A stretch of 64,000 bases of DNA, taken from positions 50,036,001 through 50,100,000 of the forward strand of contig NC_058382.1 of NCBI RefSeq assembly GCF_018350175.1, in the 5' to 3' direction. Under the pieces are notes generated by a model that was not told the origin of the DNA, searched no databases, and saw nothing but the letters and a program-made list of their open reading frames with translations. Position numbers and translations under genes: made by a program. The number at the start of each line of letters is the position of its first letter. The stretch's first letter is position 1. The DNA comes from Felis catus (taxonomy: Eukaryota). Shown here one piece after another: positions 8,445 to 58,502 of this stretch.

Positions 8445-8982
8445 GATAGTAAGAGCTCTTTGTGACTTGATTTCTCCAGTCTTATAGGCGGTACAATATA
8501 TTTCAGAATTCATTTTGCACTAGTAGAAATTTGAAGACGATATGCAAGAGTTAATTGATAATTTCTGTAGAAACTGTTCCTAGTTTTGATGAAGATTTTT
8601 TTTTAAATTTTAATTACAGTTTAGTTAACATACAGTGTTATATTAGTTTCAGGTATGATACAGTGATTCAACACTACCATATGTCACCCTGTGCTCATCA
8701 CAAGTGCACTCCTTAATCCCCATCACCCATATAGCCCATCCCCTGCCCACCTCCCATCCAGCAACCTTCAGTTTGTTCTCCATAATTAAGAGTCTGTTTC
8801 TTGGTTTGTCTCTCTCTCTCTTTTTTCTTTGCTCAATTGTTTTGTTTCTTAAATTCCACATGAGTGAAATCATAAAGTATTTGTCTTTCTCTGACTTAGC
8901 TTAGTATTATACTCTCTAGCTCCATCCATGTTGTTGCAAATGGCAAGATTTCATTCTTTTTTTATGTCTGAATAATATTCTG

Positions 8983-9062
8983 ATATATATATATATATAC
9001 ACATACATATATATATATATTCTGATATGTATATATATATATACATACATATATATATATAT
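8983..9062. repeat. (TA)n-rich compound microsatellite within L1 3' region
   Basis: Read directly. Confidence 0.9.
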
Positions 9063-9878
9063 GCCACATCTTCTTTATCCATTCATCAGTTGATGGACAC
9101 TTGAAATGCTTCCATATCTTGGCTATTGTAAATAATGCAGCTATAAACATAAGGGTGCATGTATCCTTTCTAATTAGTGTTCTTTTCTTTTATTTTTTTG
9201 GGGGGTAAATACTCAGTAGTGCAACTGCTGGATCATTAGATAGTTCTATTTTTAGCTTTATGAGGAACCTCCATACTGTTTTCCACAGTGGCTGCACCAG
9301 TTTGCATTCCCACTAACAGTGCTAGAGGGTTCCTTTTCCTCGACATCCTCACCAACACCTGTTGTGTATTGTGTTGTTGATGTCAGTCATTCTGACAGGT
9401 GTTAGGTGATAGCTGATTGTTATTTTGATTTGCATTTTCCTTGATGATGAGTGATATTGAGCATTTTTTCATGTGTCTGTTAGGCATCTGTATATCTCTG
9501 GAGAAACGTCTGTTCATGTCTTCTGCCCATTTTTTAATTGGATTATTTGTTTTTTGGTTGTTGAGTTTTATAAGTTCTTTGTATATTTTGGATACCAATC
9601 CTTTATCGGATAAGCCTTTTGCTAATATTTTCTTCCATTTCATAGGTTGCCTTTTAGTTTTGTTGATTGCTTTGCTGTGATGAAGATTTTTATTTTGATG
9701 TAGTCCCAATATCTTATTTTTGCTTTTGTTTCCCTTGCCTCAGGAGACCCACCTAGAAAAAAGTTGCTACAGCTGATGTCAAAGAAGTTACTGCTTGTGT
9801 TCTGTTAGGATTTTTATGGTTTCAGGTCTCACATTTTGGTTTTTCATCCATTTTGAATTTGTTTTTGTGTATGGTGTA

Positions 9879-9912
9879 AGAAAGAAAGAAAGAAGGAAAG
9901 AAGGAAAGAAGG

Positions 9913-9991
<79 letters not shown>

Positions 9992-10021
9992 GAAAGAAAG
10001 AAAGGAAGAAAGAAAAAGAAA
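9879..10021 (+). repeat. (GAAA)n microsatellite within L1 ORF2
   Basis: Read directly. Confidence 0.95.
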
Positions 10022-11713
10022 GTGTATGGTGTATGCATTCTTCTGCATATTGCTGTCCAGTTTTCCTAACACCATTTGTTGAAGAGACTGTATCTTTTTC
10101 CCATTGGATATTCTTTCCTGCTTTGTTGAAGATTAATTGACCACATAGTTGTGGGTTTATTTCTGGACTTTCTGTTCCATAGATCTAGGTGTCCATTTTT
10201 GTGCCAGTACTGTACTGTTTTGATTACTACAGCTTTGCAATATAACTTGAGGTGTGGAATTGTGATGCCTCCCACTTTGCATTTCTTTTTCAAGATTCCT
10301 TTGGCTATCAGGGGTCTTTTGCTGTTCCATACATATTTTAGGATTGTTTCTTCTAGCTTGGTGAAAAATGCTGTTGGTATTTTGACAGGGATTGCATTAA
10401 ATGTGTAGATTGCTGTGGATAGTGTAGACATTTTAACAATATTTGTTCTTCCAATCCATGAGCATGGAATATCTTTCCATTTATTTGTGTCTTCTTCAAT
10501 TTCTTTTATCAGTTTTTTATAGTTTTCAGAATACAGATGTTTCACTTCTTTGGTTAGGTTTATCCTTAGGTATCTTATTTTGGGGGTAATTGCAAATGAG
10601 ATTGTTTTGTTAATTTCTCTTTCTGTTGCTTCATTATTGGTGTATAGAAATGCAACACATTTTTGCACATTGATTTGTATCCTGCGACTTTACTGAATTT
10701 GTTTATCAGTTTCTGGCAGTTTTTTTGGTGGAGTCTTTAGGGTTTTCTGTGTATAGTGTCATGACATCTGCAAATAGTGGAGGTTTTACTTCTTCCTTAC
10801 AGACTTGGATGCCTCTTATGTCTTTTTGTTGTCTGATTGCTGTGGTTCAGATTTGCAGTACAATGTTGAATACAAGTGGTGAGAGTGGGCATTCTTGTCT
10901 TGTTCTTGACTTTAGGGGGAAAGCTCTCAAATTTTCCCCTTTGAGTATGATGTTCACTGTGGGTTTTTCATCGATGGCCTTTATTATTGTGCGGTATGTT
11001 CTCTTTAAACCTACTTTGTTGAGGGCTTTTATCATGAATGGATGTTGTACTTTGTCAAATGCTTTCCTGCATCTTTTGAGATGATAGTATGACTTTTATC
11101 CCTTCTCTTATTGATGTGATGTATCATGTTGATTGATTTGCGAATAGCAAAGCACACCTGCATCCTGGGAATAAATCCCACTTGATCATGGTGAGTGTTT
11201 TTAAAAATATATTGTTGGATTCTGTTTGCTTGTATTTTGTTGAGGATTTTTGCATCTATGTTCATCAGAGATACAGGCCTATAATTCTCTTTTTTTGTGG
11301 TGTCTTTATCTGATCTTGGTATCAGGGTGATATTTGTTTCATAGAATGAATTTCAATATTTTCCTTCTATTTTTTTGGAAGAGTTTGAGTAGAATAGGTA
11401 TTAACTTTTCTTTAAATGTTTGGTAGAATTCACCTGTGAAGCCATCTGGTCCTGGAGTTTTGGCTGTTGGGAATTTTTTGATTACTGATTCAATCTCCTT
11501 GCTGGTAATTGGTCTGTTCAAATTTTCTGTTTCCTCCTGCTTCAGTTTTGGTAGGTCATATGTTTCTAGGAATTTACCATTTATTCTGGGTTGTCTAATT
11601 TGTTGGCATATAGTTTGTCATAATATTCTCTTACAGTTCTTTGTATTCCTGTGTGTTCATTGTTATTTCTCCTCTCTGATTTGTGATTTGCTTTATTTGA
11701 ATCCTCTCTCTCC

Positions 11714-11715
<2 letters not shown>

Positions 11716-11764
<49 letters not shown>
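11716..11764 (+). repeat. (CTTT)n microsatellite within L1 ORF2
   Basis: Read directly. Confidence 0.95.
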
Positions 11765-12633
11765 ATGAGTCTGGCTAGAGGTTTATCAATTTTGCTTATT
11801 TTTTCAAACAACCAGCTCCTGGTTTCATTGATCTGTTCTGTTGGTTTTTAGTCTCTATATCATTTATTTCTGCTTTAATCTTTATTATTTTCTTATTTCT
11901 GATGGTTTTGAGTTTTGTTTGTTATTCTTTTTCTAGCTCCTTTTTGTGTTAAGTTAGGTTATTTGAGATTTTCTTGCTTCTTGAGGTATGCCTGTGTTGC
12001 TATAAACTTCCCTCTTAGAACTGCTTTTGCTGCATCTCAAAGGTTTTGGAACATTGCATTTTCATTTTCATTTGTTTCCATGTAATATGTATTTATTCTT
12101 TTATTTCCTGGTTGACCCATTCATTGTTTAGTAGCATATTGTGTGACCTCCATGTATTTCTGGTCTTTCCAGAGTTTTTCTTGTGGTTGACTGCTAGTTT
12201 TTAGCTTTGTGGTAAGGAAAGATGCATGGTATGGCTTAGATCTTCTTGAATTTGTTGAGGCTTGTTTTGTGGGCTAAGATGTGATCTATTCTGGAGAATG
12301 TTCCATGTGCACTTGAAAAGAATTCTGCTGTTTTAGGATGAAATGTTCTGAATATATCTGTTAACATTTCTGGTTCAGTGTGTCATTCAAAGCCATTGTT
12401 GTCTTGTTGATTTTGTGTTTGGATGATCGATCTGTCCTTTGACTTAAGTGGTTGTTAAAGATCCCTATTATTATTTATTATCATTGATTAGTTCCTTTAT
12501 ATTTGTTATTAACTGTTGTATTATTTGGATGCTTTCATGTTGGGTGTACATATATTTATAATTGTTATATCTTCTTGGATTGTCCCCATTATTATCACAT
12601 ATTATCCTTTTTGTCTCTAGTTATAGTCTTTGC

Positions 12634-12634
12634 T

Positions 12635-12673
<39 letters not shown>

Positions 12674-12681
12674 TTTTCTTT
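12634..12681 (+). repeat. (TTTA)n tract flanked by TSD-like direct repeat
   Basis: TTATAGTCTTTGCTTT (12621-12636) and TTACAGTCTTTGTTTT (12682-12697). Confidence 0.85.
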
Positions 12682-15585
12682 TTACAGTCTTTGTTTTAAA
12701 GTCTGTTTTGTCCTGTATAAGTATTACTAAGCTGGCTTTCTTTTGACATCCATTAGCATGATAAATTTTCTCCATTCCTTCACTTTCAATCTGCAGGTAT
12801 CTTTAGGTCTAAAATGAATCTCTTATGGGCAGCATATAGATGGATCTTGTTTTTATTATTTTTTCTAATCTATTCTGCGCCCTGTATCTTTTCATTGGAG
12901 CATTTAGTCCATTTACATTCACAGTCATTATTGATAGATATGTGTTTATTGCCATTTTGTTACTTGTTTTGTGGTTGTTTTTGTAGTTTTTCTCTGATCC
13001 TTTCTTTTCTTTCATGGTTTTCTGGGTTTTTTTTTAGTGATATACTTGGGTTCCTTACTTTTTATTTTTTGCATATCTATTATTTTTTTCTATTTGCATA
13101 TTTGCCTATTTCTATTTGCATATCTATTATATCTATTATGTTTTTCTATTTGTGGCTACCATTTGGCTTATATATAGCATCTTCTGTATATAGCAGTCTA
13201 TATTAAACTCATGGTTGCTGAATTTTGAAGTCATTCTTTGCTCCTCTGCCCTCCACATTTCATATATTTGGTATCATCTTTTACATCCTTTAATTTTGTG
13301 CTTCTCTTGACTCATTTTTACAGATATACTTATTATTTGTTTCTTTTTACTTTTGTGTTTCATATTTTTCTTACTCTACTTACGGTTTTTGTTTTCCACT
13401 CACAGAGTCCCTCTTTACATTTCTTGTGGGACTGGTTTAGTGGTCGTGAATGCTTTTAACTTTTGTTTTGTCTGGGACATGCTTTATCTCTCCTTCTGTT
13501 CTGAATGATAACCTTGCTGGATAGAGTATTCTTCGCTGCAGATGGTTCCCTTTCAGCACTTTGGATACATGATGACACTCTCTTTTGGCTTGCAAAATTT
13601 CTGCTGAAAAATCAGCTGATAGCCTTATGTGGTTTCCCCTTGCATGTAACTATCTCCTCTAACAACCTTTAAAATTCTTCATCACTATTTACTATTTTAA
13701 TTACTATGTGTCTCAGTGTAGACCTCCTTGGGTTGAATTTGTTGGGAGATCTCTGTACCTCCTGAATCTACATATTTGTTTCTGTCCCCAGATTTGGAAA
13801 CTTTTTAGCTATTATTTCTTCAAACACATTTTTCGCCCTCTCCAACTCTTCTCTTTTCCTCTAATGTGAATGTTATTACACTTGATGGAGTCACTGAGTT
13901 CTCTAAGTCTGTTCTCATTCTGCAGTATCGGTCTCTCACCTGTGCAGCTTGATTAAACAATCATGACTCTACCCATGACTCTATCCTCCATCCTCTATCC
14001 TCTATCAACCATGACTCTATCCTCCAGGTCACTGATATGTTCCTCTGCTTCCTGTAACCTACTTATTCCACCTCGTGTGTTTGTAATTTCATTTACTGAG
14101 TTCTTCATTTGTGCTGTATTATTTTTGACCTCTCTGTTAAGGGTCTCACTGATGTTCTCTACCCTTTTCTGAAGTCTGGTGAGTGTCTTTATGACCATTA
14201 CTTTAAATTCTGTATCAGGTGTATTACTTATTTTCCTTTTACTTAGATCTCCTGCTGTGATTTTTGTCCTGTTCTTTCATCTGGGACATATTTCCCCATC
14301 TCCTCATTTTGTGCACCTCTCTGTGTCCGTTTCTGTGTGTCAGGAAACTCAGCTATGTCTTCTGCTCTTAAAGGTGGTGGCCTCGTGGAATCCTGTAGTG
14401 CTCTGCAGTGCAGTGTCCCCTATTCACCAGAACCTGGCACTACAGGGGAGTCTCCTATGTGTGTTGCTTGTGTCCTGCTGTTTAGTCAGAGCCACTTTTC
14501 CTTGCAGTCCAGACATCTGTACTAATTCTTTGTTGTGGCCTGTGCTTGCTTACTGTAGCGGTAGTGAGACCCATGCTCTGAGGGGTCATGATAGCAGAAG
14601 GGCTCGGGGGCGGGGCAGCGGCGTTGGCAAAATTTGCACTGAGCCACTGGTCCCAGACGGGATCCCCCTCAGCCCGCTAGCTGCCCCGGGCTCGGCACGT
14701 GGTGGTAGTGGTGGCAGCCGGGGTCATGTGGCATCTGTGCACACGACAGTTGGGCAGGGTACACGCATGGGGTTAACAAAATTTTGCATTGAGCCCAGGG
14801 CTGAGGCCAGCAGGCTTCGAGTGGGTGAGTTCTCAGGACAACTCGTGGGCAGCACGCCCTGCTAGCAGGTTAGGTAGCAAACGTCTGTGCCACGCGGCCT
14901 CCCATAGCATTATGCTGGGGGTTGGGGGAAGAAGATGGTAACTGCCAGCTTCTTTGTTCCCAGAGAAGTCCCCCACACGCTCTGAAATCAGTACAAGCTG
15001 ATCTCTCTCCCGTTGTGCAAACTGTGGCTTCTATGTTGCCCGCTTTCAGGCTGTTTTCTCTTTAAAGGCAGGACTCTGCTATCATTAGCTGTGTTCACCC
15101 TCCGGGCTTGCCCGGTGCTGAGTCAGCTGACTTTTAAAGGTCCAGGCTCTGAGTCTCCCTGGTTATACAAACTCACAGAATTCAGCCCTCTTTGGTTTTC
15201 AAGGCCAGATGTTATGGGGATTCATTTTCCCTGTGTGGCTCCCTGGTGCTTTCCCCCTCTCTGCGACCCAGCTCCTTCTCTCTTGCAGGCAGCTCCCAGC
15301 CACTCTTTCTATTTTTCCTAACCTCTACCATGTGGCTTCTTCTCTACATTTAGTAGTGGCATTCGTTCTGCCAGTCTTTGGGTGGCTCTCATTTACTCAG
15401 ATGTGAGTGAAACCTGATTGCAGACGTGGGATGAGGTGAGCTTAGGGTCCTCCTACTCTGCCATCTTGAACCCCCTCTTTGATGAAGATATTCTATTACA
15501 AAATTTTATCTTGTTCTCGGGTAATATAACTGCAATCTTAGAGTCGGCTGGAATACTAAGCTTATTTTTAGAACATAAAAAACCA

Positions 15586-21966: not shown

Positions 21967-23781
21967 ATTTTTAAGTGATATTACTTTTAGAAAAAATAAT
22001 TAAATAACTCTTTGTTTTCATTGACCCTAAATTATGACCTCCTTATGCTTAGAAAAGCATGAGAATACGACTCTCAATCTCTTCTTGCTGGATATGTCCT
22101 CTTTCCTCGTCTCATTTTCATAAAGCTCCTGATCTGTTGATCAGCATATTGATAATCATATCCCAGTTTTGCTTATTTTCCTCGCTTGAGGCTGTTAAAT
22201 GATAATTTTCAAAAAAGAGATAAAACTATATCTCCCGTGCTGATATAAAGTGAATAATTATTAAGGATATTATTTAACTGGTGAATCAGAGAGGGAATCA
22301 AGTAGGCATTTAACAGATTCAAAAGAAAATCCTTGCTTGTCCACACCTGACAAGGGAGGTCAGTTGACTCTCTATGGACAGGGAAGGCTTGCATTTCTAT
22401 AGATAAGAATTATTTTTCATTGCTATCAGCTATCTAGAATTTACAGAGATGGGGAATAGCTGCCGTAAGATCATAAATAGGTAACAGGGAGACATGTGCT
22501 AGATAGACAATGCATTGTTTCCCTTTGAAGCACTAATTTTTCCCTAAAGAGCCTTGATTCAATTTTTACTATTGACACAGAGTTGCAGGCTTAAAGTGCT
22601 AGAGAACTAGGGAAATTTCTTGAGGTTTGGATAACTGTTTTATTCATAATAAGAAAGGTTAGAGTATTTTCAAGAGAAGCAATCAGTGAGCCTGAGAAAG
22701 GATTTAGTGAAAGGACTGTTACATTAAAGGAGAATAAAGTTCAGAATCTCAGTATGGAAGGAGTTTTCGTGCTACTGACACGTAAGGATGGAGAAAATGT
22801 CAATTTGACCAGAGCTCATAAGATTTCTTATATTTGAAATGGAATTGGCCTGATGGATAACCCCTGAGCCCTTTGCACCTTTTGAGGTATGATTCTGCCT
22901 ACAGCCACCTAGGACCAAGATAACTGAGCCAGACAGCCCTGCGACGAATCCGCAAGAGCTTAGGCAGGAGCTGTGTTCAGAAGGGAAATTCAGTGGTCTG
23001 GTGGTCCATCATGACCCCACAAGTCCTCAATACCACGCGTCCATCAAGTGATTGTTGCCTTCAGTTTGGTTTGCCATGTCACATGGCATGAAGTTTTGCT
23101 AAATGTCCTCAGAATTTAGGGACGATGGGAACAATGTGCAAATTAACCATGGGTAATGTTCCTGCCCATACACAATTGCGGGTATTTAAAAACTTTAGAT
23201 GCGAATGAAACCCCATATTCCTTGTAAATAGTGTCAGTCTGCCTCCAAATAACATGTTGCCAAGATGGAATAATTTGCCGTAAGTGTCTGCACCAGCAAC
23301 AGTGGCTGGCACATATATAGATGCTATTCAGTAAGTGTGCGTGGTATTGACTGGAAGAGCATCCGAGAAGAGTTTCCATTTTTCTATGAAAAGGAAAACA
23401 TTTGGTGCTCATTTATTAGAAAAGAAGTTGTTGACTTCGAACAGGGTGGTGGTGCGGCATCGTGTTGCTGACAAACATACTAACTATGCCCTCATTTTCC
23501 TTAGTGTTCCTATATGTTAATGATATTTACATCCTCTCCTTATCACCAGGGAACCAAACACAGAATCCAGGAGCACATTGGCAGGAGAAATGTAAATAAA
23601 CATGCACGTTACGTGAAAAAAACCGAACCCTGGAGAAACCTTTTTGCCCATTAGAAGTGTAGGGTTACCTAGAAGCTCATAGTCTCCAAATGTGTTTGTA
23701 ATTACATGTATAACGTGTCTTGTTTGCTAAGTAATAGGCCTACTGAACTGCACAACCTGGAAATAAAATATACTGACCCCT

Positions 23782-24500
23782 TAGATTACAGAAACTCTTT
23801 ATTTAATGACTTCCCTGATGAGCCATGAACGTATCCAGGGCAGAGATTTGAAAGCTGACACTCCGTAGCACTTTCGAAACTTCCTTCCGTTCCTCTTCCT
23901 TCTTTGGGATGTTAGTAGTTTGCAAAAAGCTGAATAGGAGACAACACAATATGAACTACTACAAAAAACCCCTAACACCATACGAAATACTGAAAGAGAA
24001 TATTTTAAACATGCAAATGATTACTTATCTGAATTTTAACCAAAGTAGGTAAACAAGTCTTTCAGAAAATAGGAACTTGATGGGTACAGTTTGAAAGCCA
24101 GATTGGGAGATTATATATCACATTGCGCACATGGTCTTCTCTGGGTGATCTTTGGTTTTATTCTAAATAATTTATTGTAATTTACTTTAAAAAACTTACT
24201 TAAAATGACCTTTTATTTTTTATTTATTTTTTTAATTTTTTTTAACGTTTATTTATTTTTGAGACAGAGAGAGAGCATGAACAGGGGAGGGTCAGAGAGA
24301 AGGAGACACAGAATCTGAAACAGGCTCCAGGTTCTGAGCTGTCAGCACAGAGCCCAACGCGGGGCTCGAACTCACCGACTGCGAGATCATGACCTGAGCC
24401 GAAGTCGGCCGCTTAACCGACTGAGCCACCCAGGCGCCCCTATGACCTTTTATTTTTGTTAAATGAACGTTTACTATTTCTGTAATGAGGAACAAAAGTT
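23782..24500 (+). repeat. Donor copy of local duplication (interrupted by SINE)
   Basis: Near-identical to 28541-29018 once the SINE and one TSD are removed. Confidence 0.95.
24221..24440 (-). mobile_element. CanSINE (felid) inside duplication donor
   Basis: Perfect 16-bp TSD ATGACCTTTTATTTTT (24205-24220/24442-24457). Confidence 0.96.
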
Positions 24501-25940: not shown

Positions 25941-28369
25941 ATAGAAAAGGTATATTTAATTGGAATATATATGTGTATATAGATAGACATGTATGTATGT
26001 CTATAACATCACATGCATATGTGTTTATTGAATCACTCTTCTCTTAGGCATTCAGTTTGATTTAAATATATTTTATTAGGCATAAATATTGTACAGACAG
26101 AATGAAGAGACTTTGTTATAGTTCTTGAATCTACAGAGTTTCTTTTCACTTATTCAAATATGTAATACTTTTCAGATAATTATCTGAAGCTTTCGTTTCA
26201 TGAAGCAAGCATTCGACTTTAATTTATTCTTAATCAAAAATCCTTGAAAATTTTCTGAACAAATAATCTATTGACCTCTTGTCATCTCAAAAGAAACCAG
26301 TCTTATTTCCCCCACATATTTTATTACTTTCGATTTTTGTTAATCATACTCTAGACCATTTGGAACTTATCATTTATCTGTTTTTTAAAATTACGTTCAT
26401 CACATTCTTTTTCTCAACTTTTTAACAAAATTGATACAGACCTCAGATAGGTGCCTCTCTGGTTTCTGTTTGAAAGCACAAGAGGCTGATGGCAGCGGGT
26501 GGAGGTTTGTCTGTTTATTACCAGACCTTTAGGAGAGCATATTATGAAAGGTAGAAGATACTGCAATCAGAGCTCTAGTTACTAAGCCAAATTTCATTTT
26601 GTCAGACAGAAAGCCCCTGCACACAGCAAGAAATGTATCTGATGAATCAGCAGCTGAGCTGAAATGAGACTTATATGGATCAACTATTTGAGGCAGCTCT
26701 TTATTAGCCTTTCCTGTTAAGGAATGATAAGATGGGACATCTAGCTGTTGAGAAGTCTTTAGACCACTTTAGAATCTCCATTCCCCTATTCAATAACTCA
26801 TCCTAAATATAGGCTTGCCTTCTATGTAGTTGAGACAAGAATGAAAGAGAGTGCTACAGCTTTGACTTCCAATAGGTTGTCCCAAAAATTTTAGTAGAAA
26901 GTCTTCAGCTCCCTGAAAGTCTGTAAGGAATAACGTTTAAATTTATAGGGAACTTTTCCTACCCCATATAGAACATTGGGTTTAATGAGCCATTAGTCTT
27001 GTTTTCTTGTTTTGGAAATAAAGGAATATCCCTCCCCATTTTCAAGTCTTCTGTAGGAACTGCTTTCCTATTTTTCCACATCTTATAAACATCTAGGCTT
27101 GAAATTCACGTAGGAGTGTTACTTCTCCAGATATTTAGAGTCTCACTGCTTTTTTAAAATTTAACTCTGGAGGTTTCTGCTTCCTTCCTGAAGGTAGTAC
27201 TCTTGTCTGGCAGACTTTGTGTTGGTAACTGTCATGACAGACACCTTTAAAGATTTACTTGACATATTTGACGGAAATCAGATCAGCCTTTTGGTAGAGT
27301 GAAGAGATGAGTCTCTCTCTTCAGGAGAGAGAATTATAGCCATTTTGATCAAGAGCTGGGTGTTCAACTTCAGCCATGTATCTGCTTGGATCAGAAGAGC
27401 AAAAAGCATGTGATTATTAGAAGATGGGAGAGCAAAGGTCCAGAATTGTAGATAAACTTTTTCAGTTATTAGTAAGCTATTTTTTTTTTACTGACAATTA
27501 GAATGATGTAAGCATAAAGAAGTAAATCCCCAGAGAAGAAACACGTCTCTTTTCAAGACCACCTCTGTGTCCAGCTGAGTCACAGTTAACTCTGTGGTAT
27601 CCAAGATTCAGGAGTGAATTCTTTTTCTCTTAGAGGTAGTAATATTGATAGTGTATTTAAATTTTTAATGTGATTATGGGTTACAGGATTTGGGGAACAC
27701 AGATAGTCTTCCAGATCAGGGAGAAGGTTTTGCAATACCTCCAGGGTATAAATACACCACCAAACTTAATTGAGGAACTTGGAAGTGTAGAAGAAGACTA
27801 TCTAGGTAAACCTGAGGTCAGGGATAGGATAGAAGAACTGCCGTTGTCTGCCAAGGAAATTTGGTGAGGTCGTCTTAAATCTTTGTCAAGAAGATGTTCT
27901 TGTGGGTGAAGCCAGAGAAAAAAACCTATTCACAAAAAGGCCATAGCCACTCAGTACTATTTAGCTCTCCTTGTCTAGTGGAATATTTTATTGTTATTTA
28001 TTTATTTTTAACATAGGTTATTAGTTTCAGGTGTAAAATATAGTAATTCAGCACTTCCATACATCATCCAGTGCTCATCACAACAAGTGCATTCCTTAAT
28101 CCCCATCACCTATTTAATCCATCCCCCCCCCCCCCACCATAACCATCAGTTTGTTCTCTACAGTTAAGAGTCTGTTTCTTGGCTTGCCTATCTCTGTCTC
28201 CCCGCCCCACCCTATTTGCTCATTTTTTTTTGTTTCTTAAGTTTCACATATGAGTGAAATATGGTATTTGTTTTTCTCTGACTTATTTGCTTAGCATTAT
28301 ACTCTCTAGCTCCAACCATGTCATTGCAAATGATGAGATTTCATTCTTTTTTATGGCTGAGTAATATTC

Positions 28370-28371
<2 letters not shown>

Positions 28372-28418
<47 letters not shown>
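28372..28418. repeat. (TG)n(CG)n microsatellite
   Basis: Read directly. Confidence 0.95.
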
Positions 28419-28419
<1 letters not shown>

Positions 28420-28540
28420 ACCACATCTTCTTTAACCATTCATCAGTCGATGGACACTTGGGCTTTTCCCATAATTTGGCTATTGTAGATAATGCTGCTA
28501 TAAACATAGCATTATATGTTTATATATATATAAACATATA

Positions 28541-29018
28541 TAGATTACAGAAACTCTTTAATGACTTCCCTGATGAACCATGAGCGTATCCAGGGCAGAG
28601 ATTTGAAAGCTGACACTCCGTAGCACTTTCGAAACTTCCTTCCGTTCCTCTTCCTTCTTTGGGATGTTAGTAGTTTGCAAAAAGCTGAATAGGAGACAAC
28701 ACAATATGAACTACTACAAAAAACCCCTAACACCATACGAAATACTGAAAGAGAATATTTTAAACATGCAAATGATTACTTATCTGAATTTTAACCAAAG
28801 TAGGTAAACAAGTCTTTCAGAAAATAGGAACTTGATGGGTACATTTTGAAAGCCAGATTGGGAGATTATATATCACATTGCGCACATGGTCTTCTCTGGG
28901 TGATCTTTGGTTTTATTCTAAATAATTTATTGTAATTTACTTTAAAAAACTTACTTAAAATGACCTTTTATTTTTGTTAAATGAACGTTTATTATTTCTG
29001 TAATGAGGAACAAAAGTT
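28541..29018 (+). repeat. 478-bp templated copy of 23782-24500 inserted in L1
   Basis: 4 substitutions and one 4-bp indel vs donor; lacks donor SINE; palindromic junctions. Confidence 0.95.
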
Positions 29019-30346
29019 CTCATTACAGAGATTATATATATATATATATCCCTTTCAATTAGTACTTTTGTATTCTTTGGGTAAATGCCTAGTACAGAGA
29101 TTGCTGGATTGCACACCAGTTCTATGTTTAATTTTTTGAGAAACCTCTATTCTGTATCCACAGTGGCTATATCAGTTTGCATTCCCACCAACAGTGCAAG
29201 GGGATTCTGCTCTCTCTACATCCTCGCCAATGCTTGTTTCTTGTGTTGTTGATTTTAGCCATTCTGACAGGTGTGGGGTGATATCTCATTGTAATTTTGA
29301 TTTGCATTTCCATGATGATGAGTCATGTGGAGCATCTTTTCATGTGTCTGTTGGCCATTTGGATGTCTTTGGAGAAATGTCTATCCTTGACTCCTCCCCA
29401 TCTTTGAATTGGATTATTCATTTTTTGGGGATTGAATTGTATAAGGTCTTTATATATTTTGGATACTAACACTTTATTGGATATGTCATTTGCAAACATG
29501 TTCTCCCATTTTCTAAGTTGCCTTTTAGTTTTGTTGATTGTTTCCCTTGATGTGCAGAAGATCTTAATTTTGCTATAGTCCCAATAGTTTATTTTTGCTT
29601 TTGTTTCCCTTGCCTCAGAAGACATATCTAGAAAAAAGTTGCTATGGCCAATGTTGAAGAAGTTACTGCCTGTGTTCTCTTCTAATTTTCATTGTTTCAG
29701 GTCTCACATTTCAGTCTTTCATTCATTTTGAATTTTTATTTTTGTGTATGGTGTAAGAAAGTGGTCCAGTTTCATGTTTTTGCATGTTGCTGTTCAGTTT
29801 TCCCAGCATCATTTGTTGAAGAGACCATCTTTTTCCCACTGGATATTCTTTCCTGCTTTGGTGAAGATTAATTGACCACATAGTTGTGGGTTTATTTCTG
29901 GACTTTCTGTACGGTTCCATTGATCCATGTGTCTGTTTTTGTGCCAGTACCATACTGTTTTGATTACTACAGCTTTGTAGTATAACTTGAAGCCTAGAAT
30001 TGTGATGCTTCCAGCTTTGTTTTGCTTTGGCTATTTGGAATCTTTTATGGTTGCACACACATTTTAGGATTGTTTGTTCTAACTCTGTGAAAAATGCTCT
30101 TGGTATTTTGATAGGTATTGCATTAAATCCATAGATTACTTTGGGTAGCATCCAAGACATTTTAACAATATTTGTTCTTTCAAGCCAAGAGCATGGAATG
30201 TCTTTCTATTTCTTTGTGTCACCTTCAGTTTCTTTCATCGGTGTTTTATAGTTTTCATGTTGCTGTATTTGGTTAGGTTTTTTACCTCTTTGGTTAGGTT
30301 TATTCCTAGACATCTTATTATTTTTTTGTCCAGTTATAAATGGGAT

Positions 30347-30578
30347 TTTTTTAATTAAAAAATTTTAAATGGTTATTTATCTTTGAGAGAGAGAGGGAAA
30401 GATGCAGAGTACAAGGGAGGGAGGGGCAGAGAGAGGGAGGGAGACACAGAATCTGAAGCAGGCTCCAGGCTTTGAGTTGTCAGCACAGAGCCTGGCATGG
30501 GTCTCGAACCCACAAACTGCAAGATTATGACCCGAGCTGAAGTTGGACACTTAACTGACTGAGCCCCTCAGGCGCCCC
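30347..30578 (-). mobile_element. CanSINE nested in L1
   Basis: Full body; TSD AAATGGGAT. Confidence 0.92.
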
Positions 30579-31417
30579 CAAAATGGGATGGTTTTCTTAA
30601 TTTGTCTTTTGCTGCTTCATTATTGATGTATAAAAATGCAACAGATTCTGTACATTGATTTTGTATCCTGTGACATTACTGAATTTATCAGTTCTAGCCG
30701 TTTTTTGGTGGAGTCTTTAGGATTTTCTATACATAGTATCATGTCATCTGCAAATAGTGCAAGTTTTACTTTTTCTTACAGACTTGAATGCCTTTTATTT
30801 CTTTCTGGTGTTTCATTGCTATGGCTGAGACTTTCAATACTATATTGAATAAAAGTGATTAGGGTGGACATCTTTGTCTTGTTCCTGATTGTAGGGGGAA
30901 AACTCTCATTTCTTTTTCTCACTGAAGATGGTGTTCACTGTGGGTTTTTCATATATGGTCTTTATTAGGTTGAAATATGTTCCCTCTAAAGCTACTTTGT
31001 TAAGGGTTTTTATCATGAGTAGATATGGTACTTTGTCAAATGCTTCTTCTGCCTTTTTTGAAATGATTATATAATTGATTCTTATCCTTTCTTTATTGAT
31101 GTTATGTATCACGTTGATTGATTTGTGAGTATTGAACCATTCTTGCAAACCAGGAATAAATCCCCCTTGATCGTGTTGAATGATTCTTCTAATGTATTGT
31201 TGAATTTGGTTTACTAGTATTTCGTTGAAGATTTTGCAATAATGTTCATCAGGGATATTGGCATATAGCTCTTTTTTTTGTGGTGTCTTTATCTGGTTTT
31301 GGTATTAAGGTAATGCTCACCTCATAGTATGAATTTGGAAGTTTTCCTTCCTTTTCTATTTTTTTTGGAATAGTTTGAGAAGAATAGTTATTAACTCTTC
31401 TTTAAATGTTTGGTAGA

Positions 31418-31544
31418 GGGGTGCCTGGGTGGCCCAATTGGTTAAACATCCAACCCTTGGTTTCAGCTTAGGCCATGATCTCACGGTTCACGGAATCAAG
31501 CCCCATGTTGAGCTCTGTGCTGACAGCATGGAGCCTGCTTAGGG

Positions 31545-31575
<31 letters not shown>

Positions 31576-31660
31576 ACTCTCTCTGCCCTTCCCTGCTCAT
31601 GCTCACATGTGTGCTTTCTCTCCTGAAAATAAATAAATAAACAAACACAAATAAATAAAT
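31418..31660 (+). mobile_element. CanSINE nested in L1, without TSD
   Basis: Full body; replaces ~45 bp of L1 present in the other L1 copy. Confidence 0.92.
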
Positions 31661-31904
31661 ATTTTTTGATTATTATTTTTTGATTATTAATTTAATTTCT
31701 ATGATGGTTATTGGTCTGTTCAAATTTTCTATTTCTTCCCATTTCAGTTTTGGTAGTTTATATATTTCTAGGAATTTACCATTTCTTCTGGGTTGTCTAA
31801 TTGTTGGCATATGGTTTTTCATAATATCTTTTATAATTGTTTATTTTTCAGTTGTGTTGATTGTTATTTCTTCTCTCTCATTTGTGATTTTATTTGAGTC
31901 CTTT

Positions 31905-31905
31905 T

Positions 31906-31961
<56 letters not shown>

Positions 31962-31962
31962 T
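31905..31962 (+). repeat. (CTTT)n microsatellite within L1 ORF2
   Basis: Read directly. Confidence 0.95.
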
Positions 31963-33700
31963 GAGAAGTCTGGCTAGAAGTTTATCAATTTTATTGATTC
32001 TTTCAAAGAATCAGCTCCTGGTTTCATTGATCTCTCCTATTGTTTTTTAGTATCTATATCATTTATTTCTGCTCTAATCTTTATTATTTTCTTTCTTCTG
32101 CTGGTTTTGAGTTTTGTTTGTGCTCCTTTTCCTAGCTTCCTTGGGTATAAGCTTAGATTGTTTATTTGAGATTTTTCTTGCTTCTTGAGGTAAGCCTGTA
32201 TTGCTATAAATATCCCTCTTAAAACTGCTTTTTCTGCATCCTAAAGATTTTGGATTGTTGTGTTTTTATTTTCACTTGTTTCCATGTAATTTTTATTTCT
32301 TCTTTTATTTCCTGGTTGACCCATTCATTGTTTAGCAGGATGTTGTGTAACCTCCATGTATTTGTGGTCTCTCAAGATTTTTTTCTCATGCTTGACTTCT
32401 AGTTTCGCAGTGTTGTGGTCAGAAAAGATGTATGATATGACTTTGACCTTCTTGAATTTGTTGAGGCTTGTTTTGTGGGCTAATATGTGAACTGTTTTAG
32501 AGAATGTTTCACGTGCACTTGAAAAGAATATGTATTTTGCTGTTTTAGAATGGGGTTCTGTGTATCTGTTAAATCCATCTGTTCTAGTGTTTCATTCAAA
32601 ACCATTGTTTTCTTGTTGATTTTCTGTTTAGGTAATCTGTGTGTTGATGTAATGGGGTGTTAAAGTCCTCTACTATTATCATATTGCTATCAATTAGTTC
32701 CTTTATGTTTGTTATTAACTGTTTTATGTATTTAGGTGATACCATGTTGGGTGCATAAATATTTACAATTGTTATATCTTCTTGTTGGATTGTCCCCTTT
32801 ATTATTCTATAGTGTCCTTCTTTGTCTCTTATTACAGTCTTTTTTTGAAGATGATTTCTTCCAGCATAAGTATTGCTAGTCTGGGTTTCTTTTGACATCC
32901 ATTTGCATGATGGATGTTTCTCCATCCCCTCCCTTTCAATCTGCAAGTGTCTTTAGGTCTGAAACGAGTCTCTTGTAGGCAGCATATAGGTGGGTCTTGT
33001 TTTTTAAATCTACTCTGTCACGCTATGTCTTTTGATTGGCACATTCAAGGTAATTACTGATAGATATATACTTATTGTCATTTTATAATTTGTGATTTTT
33101 TCTGGAGATTTCTTCTGATCCTTTCTTGTCTTTATCTCTTTCATGGTTTGCTGATTTTCTTTAGTGATATATTTGGATTTCTTTCCCTTTATTCTTTGCA
33201 TATTTATTAGTGGTTTTTGATATATGGTTACTATTAGGTTTGTATATAACTTCTGCATATAGTATTCAATATTAAGTTGAGGATGGTTTACGTTTTAGTG
33301 AAATATTTGAATGTATCATGTTGAATTTTCTCTTATCCATTATGAAGCATTATAATAAAATACCTGTGGAGGAGCACTGAGTCCAATCATTGTCAATAAG
33401 ATCTAATAATCTTTTGTGCAACAGCAAGCCAATTATCACTGCGCTTGATGTTCTATCAGTTGGAGTTTTAAAAAATGACCTGGAGTTTATTTTAATTGAA
33501 GAAGTATATGCAAATCTATTTCTTTCATTCTTTCTCACTATGGAAAACAAAATCTAGAAGCATACTGTACAAAATCCAGAATTTCTGAAATTCTCGTTAC
33601 CAAGTAGTTTGCAGGTATCCAAGAAAGAAGGGCTATATTTTCATGTCCTCATGGAGTTTCATGAAGAAAATAAGTAGTTGATTTAATTTTGTGGTATTCA

Positions 33701-52982: not shown

Positions 52983-54219
52983 TACGGGTGAGGAAAGTAA
53001 AATATGAGAGTAGACTGGTCAGTGATCTCAGACCACTTGTGTCATTGCTTATTGCAGATTTTCTTATTTCATTTTCTGAAAAACCATAAGTAACATCAAA
53101 CAAAGCTCAAGGAGATGGTTGGAGCTTATAAGAAAGTATACCTGAGACTAACTTTCAAATAGTTAAGTTGTCAGATTCAGAGAATTTACAGGAAGAGTAT
53201 CTGAACAACACAACAATTAGGAGATTATAAGCAATACGAAATAACATTTGCAAAGACATAGCGAATTATGGTTTATGTGACTTTCAAAGTTAACGATAAA
53301 GAAATATAACTGTATACAATTACCCTTTCAGACTCTTATTTCAACTTTTATATTCAATGTACTGAAAAGGCAGAACAAAACTTGACTGTATTTGAAGAGA
53401 TAGTTGGTTTGATCACGCAGGGTGAAGAGATTATGGTCCTAAAATAGCCTGCAGTATTGAGGATTTACCTAGGATTTAAGGGCATTAGTTTGTAAAGCTA
53501 GGGTTAAACAGTAGAATGAGTTACTTAGGGAAGGTTAACCTACTTCCTGTTTCTCAAGGGCATTTCGCTGAGAATTAAGAGTGGAATTGGACTGAGGGTT
53601 GTTTGTAAGATGGCATAGGAAGGGAACAGGGTTTGGTATGCCAGCCGTTTCTCCCCACCTTCCACGTGAGATCAATATATCTTTGATTTAAAAACCATTG
53701 CCATCTCTTGTCAAAGCCAAGTTATCCACATTATTGATTTCCCATGTGTTGTCAGGTTGGCTTCCTGAGACCCTGTCTTCTGTGAGCAGGCTTACTGTTT
53801 CTCCCTCTCCGCTGAGGTTAGCAGGGACTCCCATGTCATTCAGTGCAATGAGACTTCTTTAGTCTATACTCCCTCTAACTCCAGGGAACCTCTGTAATGA
53901 TTTCCTCATCCTTCATGCGATCTGTCCAGCTAGCATCCATGACACCACACCGGTTCAACCATATCCCATCTTGTTCTAGCTTCATGGCCGTCATTCTGAC
54001 TGGAGCCACCGACAACTTTGGGTTACTGCTTCCTCTCTGTTTCCTCCAGTTATCACTCTTGTTATACATTATAAATTTATAATGTAAATTAGACCATTGA
54101 CATTCCCCACTTAAAACCTTGCCATTGCATGTAGGACGAGATCGAAATCCCATACGCTGACTTATGACCCCTGGATCATCTGGCCTGTCTCTAACTCTCC
54201 AGCCTCGCTCACGAGTTGT

Positions 54220-58447: not shown

Positions 58448-58502
<55 letters not shown>
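58448..58502. repeat. Perfect (TA)n microsatellite (~27 units)
   Basis: Read directly. Confidence 0.95.

Follow-up and report, generated by a model that had tools for sequence, protein, structure and literature searches.

How did a 478-bp stretch of DNA, present at near-identity 4.76 kb upstream on the same chromosome, come to lie inside an L1 element of Felis catus? Repair of a broken chromosome, copying by way of an RNA, mobility of the segment itself and an error of assembly are weighed here against the copy, its donor and the junctions with L1. The window is the whole 64,000-nucleotide stretch analysed (assembly GCF_018350175.1, contig NC_058382.1, positions 50,036,001 to 50,100,000, forward strand), to which all unprefixed coordinates refer.

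The copied segment and its donor

Full alignment within the 64-kb window identifies the following two segments:

23782-24500, plus strand: donor segment, intact, single copy, 4.76 kb upstream of the copy
28541-29018, plus strand: templated insertion in a SINE-free state, with a left-join microhomology of at most 2 bp (TA)

The insertion is a 478-bp same-orientation copy of the donor, from which it differs by four substitutions (donor/copy positions 23822/28577, 23829/28584, 24089/28844 and 24474/28992) and one 4-bp indel (TTTA at donor 23798-23801), a divergence of about 1%. The initial annotation of this DNA had given the same coordinates and differences, and the self-comparison that it proposed recovers the pair as the sole high-identity non-repeat match of the window (23782-24220 versus 28541-28975, 98.4%); the alignment reaches 24500 and 29018 after the donor SINE is set aside. 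The span assigned to the donor was right, but a SINE that lies within it and is missing from the copy had been overlooked, so the donor measures 719 bp rather than 478, with 237 bp of SINE and one TSD copy (24221-24457) in addition. The donor had also been described as unique DNA, and in the whole genome (G000, 2.43 Gb) the 478-bp query matches only the copy and the donor (both of two candidates); as this is a near-identity search, two places is a lower bound.

Three of the five differences cluster in the first 45 bp, two of them being reciprocal inside a 7-bp repeat. This clustering was considered as a mark of error-prone synthesis and set aside, since its polarity needs an outgroup and two of the changes are reciprocal. 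An outgroup sought among metagenome contigs gave no matches.

The host L1 and the target site

The host is a dead, decayed minus-strand L1, and its two parts flank the insertion:

28019-28509, minus strand: left flank (3' part, decayed), collinear with the second L1 of the window
29047-33209, minus strand: right flank, decayed ORF2, recognised by ORF2p matches and collinearity

On the left, 28019-28369 corresponds to 8641-8980 and 28421-28508 to 9064-9151; the right flank is collinear with 9242-13082 at 77-82% identity, and both flanks taken together are 77-86% identical to this other L1. Two host frames match LINE-1 ORF2p in the PDB (E=2e-19 and 6e-35), and the distance from these matches suggests that the insertion site lies near the end of ORF2.

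The L1 ends carry no TSD, since no 6-mer is common to 28480-28512 and 29040-29075, and no poly(A) or poly(T) tract is present at the insertion; the missing TSD and poly(A) had been annotated previously. Host bases have been deleted. The genome holds 544 matches to the motif pair on either side of the site, and the spacer between the motifs is 13 nt in 29 of the 30 fetched L1 copies and, counted by eye among the matches listed (of 544), in 89 of 100. With two of these bases remaining here on the left and 2-5 on the right, 6-9 bp of L1 were lost; in view of the missing outgroup match, this figure and the empty allele itself derive from other L1 copies rather than from a true empty allele. The loss had been annotated as GGGTGC, which is only a lower bound.

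The second L1 (8641-13082), also decayed and on the minus strand, is about 80% identical to the host, has a duplicated TA-rich block and contains a 22-bp palindrome at 9026-9047. Small local duplications occur at the equivalent L1 spot in two of 100 copies among the matches listed (L045, G000:C1:57132134-57132183, and G000:C10:35914708-35914740), and the spacer length is altered, by eye, in 11 of the 100. This self-complementary spot may be mildly fragile.

The junctions

Between the left L1 end and the copy, the filler consists of overlapping inverted copies of adjacent sequence:

28506-28509: left L1 top-strand 3' end, self-priming, pairs with 28498-28501 across a 4-nt loop (stem checked)
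28508-28515, plus strand: snap-back 1, inverted copy of 28489-28496, a 4-bp-primed hairpin minus one TGC tandem unit
28515-28524, plus strand: snap-back 2, inverted copy of L1 28499-28508, 6-nt loop
28513-28540, no strand assigned: snap-back 3, perfect 28-bp palindrome in which 28527-28540 is the reverse complement of 28513-28526

Hairpin extension with one TGC unit omitted yields 28510-28515, and an extra TA (28525-28526) separates 28515-28524 from 28527-28540. An exact local template was found for 29 of the 31 left filler bases (28510-28540), the remainder being TA-run extension. Chance was assessed at the two junctions by five tests of 3000 dinucleotide shuffles each, all of them picked post hoc, with p values uncorrected for that. 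The 8-bp left fold-back is by itself borderline (p=0.054), and the 10-bp template of 28515-28524 is beyond chance (p=0.009). Among the palindromes of the window, only the pure TA run at 58448-58502 exceeds this one of 28 bp in length. That run, of 55 bases, adjoins a SINE; other perfect palindromes outside simple repeats occur at 54065-54086 (22 bp) and 26171-26188 (18 bp).

At the right junction, the copy departs from the donor immediately past 24500, where the donor reads ACA and the copy CTC:

29019-29029, plus strand: snap-back 4, inverted copy of 28997-29007
29028-29046, plus strand: direct re-copy and expanded TA run, 29028-29039 being identical to 28862-28873 (donor 24107-24118)

Snap-back 4 is primed by the end of the copy, as 29016-29018 pairs with 29009-29011 across a 4-nt loop, with one G of a GG skipped. 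None of the 3000 shuffles reaches the 11-bp right fold-back, placing it beyond chance. The 12-bp re-copy of the insert interior (p=0.0007) partly accounts for 29030-29048, which the initial annotation had left unexplained. The bases 29044-29050 are identical to 28868-28874, providing a ready microhomology with the right L1 end, and the expanded TA run lies in between. On this side, exact local templates account for 21 of the 28 filler bases (29019-29046), and the remainder is TA-run extension. The fold-backs recorded initially at 28508-28515 and 29019-29029, the latter as reverse complement of 28997-29007 and absent from the donor, and the palindrome at 28513-28540 all recur here at the same coordinates, though the first of them is borderline when taken alone.

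A further match, of 29024-29033 to the L1 flank at 29093-29102 (p=0.003), overlaps bases claimed by the 12-bp re-copy, so that the two compete; it may be an extra abortive priming step or chance. In this flank the host departs from the majority of 30 family copies at four of the five central positions, and 29093-29102 may either have been the template for 29024-29033 or itself have been rewritten during the event.

Proposed repair mechanism

Both main joins sit at top-strand 3' ends that can prime themselves with a 4-nt loop, and each hairpin skips one repeat unit. Ends of this kind are uncommon among 63,800 window positions (0.7% for a 4-bp stem and 2.1% for a 3-bp stem; 2.3% and 7.4%, respectively, if loops of 3-6 nt are allowed), and their presence at both joins favours extension of top-strand 3' ends. 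The reading that best fits the locus is a germline break patched in repeated template switches, with hairpin priming of the Pol theta type; with two DNA routes for the long copy taken together, its probability is put at about 0.7. The target deletion, the missing TSD and tail, the single-copy donor and the templated fillers fit the patch proposed initially, in which several snap-back syntheses combine with one long-range switch of template.

The process would have begun in the germline with a break, probably double-stranded, inside the already dead L1, and error-prone synthesis primed by microhomology would have closed it. With the top strand read rightwards, the 3' end of the broken L1 would have folded on itself three times (snap-backs 1-3); the new end would then have paired, via no more than 2 bp (TA), with the donor 4.76 kb away, whose bottom strand served as template. 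This template could have been a sister chromatid or homologue copied directly, or a free single-stranded piece that was captured. After 478 nt, the 3' end would have folded back again and re-primed within the segment for 12 nt, before annealing to the right L1 end via TA-rich microhomology with the loss of 6-9 L1 bases. These steps were fitted post hoc to the sequence, and short AT-rich matches are prone to over-reading. Synthesis from right to left on a resected top strand was considered and found less parsimonious, as it needs the 5' arm of the right hairpin ahead of its template.

Two terminal pairs suffice for purified Pol theta to extend a stem-loop, with slippage, and Pol eta and Pol lambda likewise extend stem-loops (PMC11292364); snap-back and trans SD-MMEJ priming have been described (PMC5728401), as has template switching with TMEJ signatures at human meiotic breaks (PMC7615360). 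Yeast, which is without Pol theta, forms fold-backs by Pol delta (PMC11724301). A Pol-theta-type enzyme is a candidate here, since sequence does not reveal the polymerase. Since the inverted Pol theta insertions quoted for mammalian cells are 3-30 bp long (PMC11292364), the 478 nt would require another polymerase or fragment capture. In addition, a direct-orientation copy made from the left needs the bottom strand of the donor, and resection of the left end would remove that strand in cis. A sister or homologue, a released single-stranded piece or a minus-strand RNA could each have supplied it, and sequence data alone would not separate the three.

A possible RNA template

If an RNA was the source, the event would be a class 2 templated sequence insertion, independent of endonuclease: a minus-strand transcript of the donor would have been reverse-transcribed from the broken L1 top-strand end, and end joining would have added the hairpins. 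We regard this as unlikely. Such an RNA is exactly the strand that left-to-right synthesis requires, and a poly(A)-signal hexamer, canonical in the donor (23803-23798) and variant in the copy (28562-28557), lies 16 nt before the minus-strand 3' end of the segment; however, the left junction is without poly(T), and 7-10% of 63,420 random 478-bp segments have a comparable hexamer close to an end. An acceptor-like site is also found 25 nt past the minus-strand 3' end (first base 23756), but its score ranks about 120th among 4,767 AG sites. Class 2 insertions, for which an RNA origin has been proposed, lack both TSD and tail and show a microdeletion, whereas their published donors are described as distant (PMC5110952); the 4.8-kb spacing suits DNA templating. 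Nor was a gene detected in the window by Pfam, which matched none of 18 long ORFs (of 26 listed) and none of 88 candidate exons (of 97), or by Rfam, with no matches in the window; these are weak tests.

An end of the segment defined by a lariat or branch point was also considered and rejected, the only sign of it being an acceptor-like motif of common strength.

A canonical L1-mediated insertion (class 1 TSIP, transduction or retrocopy) is contradicted by the missing TSD, the deleted target and the missing poly(A). The initial verdict that the event was not a retrotransposition therefore stands for L1 target-primed insertion, which the missing TSD and tail rule out, but not for an endonuclease-independent RNA-templated patch, which retains the low probability just given.

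An inverted repeat bracketing the segment

One feature falls outside what the repair model accounts for, namely, a perfect 10-bp inverted repeat close to both ends of the segment, in donor and copy alike:

28544-28553, plus strand: left arm, also at donor 23785-23794
28995-29004, plus strand: right arm, also at donor 24477-24486

The repeat begins 3 nt inside the left end and stops 14 nt inside the right end. An equivalent repeat lies within 25 nt of both ends in 95 of 63,522 window segments and within 40 nt in 241 of 63,522, while shuffles give 0.18% and 0.4%, respectively, for an overall chance of 0.15-0.4%. As the repeat was found post hoc among several features, it is a lead rather than a result. 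In a DNA fold of the isolated strand, the arms have a pair probability of 0.51-0.61. A conceivable but doubtful reading is that the structure of the donor strand itself fixed the segment ends, with a flap of single-stranded DNA or a transcript folding as a panhandle via the repeat. The panhandle would have been trimmed to 3 nt past the stem on one side and to a mini-hairpin on the other, and captured whole at a nearby break. If this were true across many insertions, it would allow the segments that give rise to templated insertions to be predicted, and fragment capture to be told apart from direct template switching.

The donor SINE and the age of the event

The copy preserves the state of the donor without its SINE:

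24221-24441, minus strand: young SINE, in the donor only, with identical 16-bp TSDs at 24205-24220 and 24442-24457
28960-28975, plus strand: single empty SINE target site in the copy, from the alignment

The element, which we take to belong to the carnivore tRNA-derived SINEs, has its nearest relatives in L005 (2/205 differences) and L006 (4/207), each with its own flanks and TSD; the remaining 27 fetched copies are 93-96% identical to it. L004, L005 and L006 form a small, very young cluster with common diagnostic changes, in which L005 is central, and are candidates for presence/absence polymorphisms. Its identity of 86-88% to the other SINEs of the window raised the idea that it far predates the copy, which was rejected, as relatives at 98-99% exist. 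ARAGORN gave five matches in the window, all of them SINE heads and none inside the donor SINE.

At the mutation rate from cat pedigrees (0.86e-8 per generation, a generation being 3.8 years; 10.1101/2021.04.06.438608), the four substitutions among 478 sites correspond to a copy age of 1.85 My (Poisson limits 0.5-4.7), which a slower long-term rate would raise and copying errors would lower. The SINE lineage is dated at 1.5-2.9 My, varying with the assumed CpG rate (limits 0.4-7.4). The clock cannot order two events of such ages, and the simplest order is that the SINE landed in the donor after the copying. On either the DNA or the RNA route, it could instead have been there already and have been skipped by slippage between the 16-bp TSDs, or a SINE-free homologue could have served as template. 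The overlapping ages would allow this, and the event changed templates several times at homologies shorter than 16 bp; against it, the SINE cluster is very young (2-4 differences in 205-207 nt, three copies) and the TSDs are identical, so that a later SINE insertion requires no additional step. We consider this alternative improbable.

Possible assembly error or mobility of the segment

A chimeric read, or the donor of the other haplotype misplaced inside L1, would also produce a second copy. In 20 public runs from nine studies under two organism labels, among which the source sample may be included, 0.76-0.86 of 74 sampled words are present. These shares are higher than the 0.645 predicted for a genome lacking the copy (P=2e-5 for 0.86) but not above the 0.82 predicted for other donors having the alleles of the copy (P=0.22); being ambiguous between the presence of the copy and copy-like donor alleles, they were not counted as proof. 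The window itself speaks against an artefact: it contains no N, L1 is collinear on either side of the insertion, and the fillers are drawn from both flanks and from the insert. Moreover, a copy in the pre-SINE state with about 1% divergence is not expected from the present-day donor. An assembly error is thus very improbable.

A small mobile element bounded by inverted termini is largely refuted as the identity of the segment, with a probability close to nil: the inverted repeat close to both ends is the one feature in its favour, but it stops 3 nt short of one end and 14 nt short of the other without extending further, the copy has no TSD, and the segment occupies two places in 2.43 Gb (a lower bound). 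The many copies, strictly terminal inverted repeats and TSD of a DNA transposon or MITE were looked for and not found; a multi-copy mobile element with termini or TSDs of its own is what the initial annotation had named as grounds for abandoning the repair reading.

Significance

The event is real, belongs to a known class of repair accidents and has no evident function. By itself it is of little consequence, as it lies in a dead L1 with no gene found nearby; its value is that of a fossil in which germline break repair can be read at each base, the SINE serving as an internal time marker, and it is a possible presence/absence marker between related species. It also raises a genome-wide question: do the ends of local templated insertions show an enrichment of terminal inverted repeats or poly(A) sites? 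The answer would bear on DNA switching versus fragment or RNA capture. Among the papers listed for felids, none contains 'templated insertion', which is not proof of absence.

Comparison with known systems

By its organisation, the locus is a local templated insertion with deletion, a class defined by an intact donor and a template, 10 bp or longer, no more than 10 kb away: the template here is 478 bp long and lies at 4.76 kb, the donor is intact, at least two duplicated pieces are joined at microhomology, and 6-9 host bases are lost, as judged from other L1 copies. Abyzov et al. reportedly placed template sites 2-6 kb from breakpoints in 2015. In the survey of 2,504 human genomes by Sudmant in 2015, 871 of 1,651 complex deletion sites had a template within 10 kb, 191 of the 1,651 were insertions with two or more duplications, and only 17 complex-site insertions were judged RNA-derived (PMC4617611). 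The cat event resembles its 'Ins with MultiDup and Del' class in combining a deletion with at least two duplicated pieces, a local template and microhomology in what is probably a single event, as well as its inserted duplicated stretches that are shorter than 1 kb and lie no more than 5 kb from the other copy. However, those stretches are inverted and the cat copy is direct, the cat deletion is 6-9 bp against a mean of 3.1 kb, and the event is non-human and about 1% diverged (PMC4617611).

The junctions are like products of Pol theta and SD-MMEJ in their inverted 8-14-bp inserts, 1-4-bp priming, 4-6-nt loops, slippage and short final microhomology (PMC11292364, PMC5728401). Stem-loop-primed short inverted inserts are present, but only the fillers fit the expected length of tens of bases; four successive snap-backs and a 478-nt direct copy from 4.76 kb contrast with the 3-30 bp quoted (PMC11292364), and the locus is therefore not classed as a plain TMEJ product. 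Captured fragments in yeast likewise combine two overlapping pieces of one locus, inverted relative to each other, with local fold-backs at the break, and released single-stranded pieces are seen in flap mutants; unlike the cat event, in which the inverted piece is only 11 bp, they are reported from yeast, mostly from rad27 and RPA mutants, and involve Pol delta and NHEJ (PMC11724301). Class 2 templated sequence insertion polymorphisms (Onozawa and Aplan) share the intact donor, the missing TSD and poly(A), the microdeletion and the filler, and are of similar size (73-414 bp experimentally), but they are described as RNA-derived from distant donors, whereas the cat donor is local and the filler templated (PMC5110952). 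Finally, the 'bridge' of templated insertion and the local n-jumps of cancer genomes (Li 2020) also return a copied segment to the host chromosome and leave a gap; those are somatic tumour events, while the cat event is old and inherited (PMC7025897).
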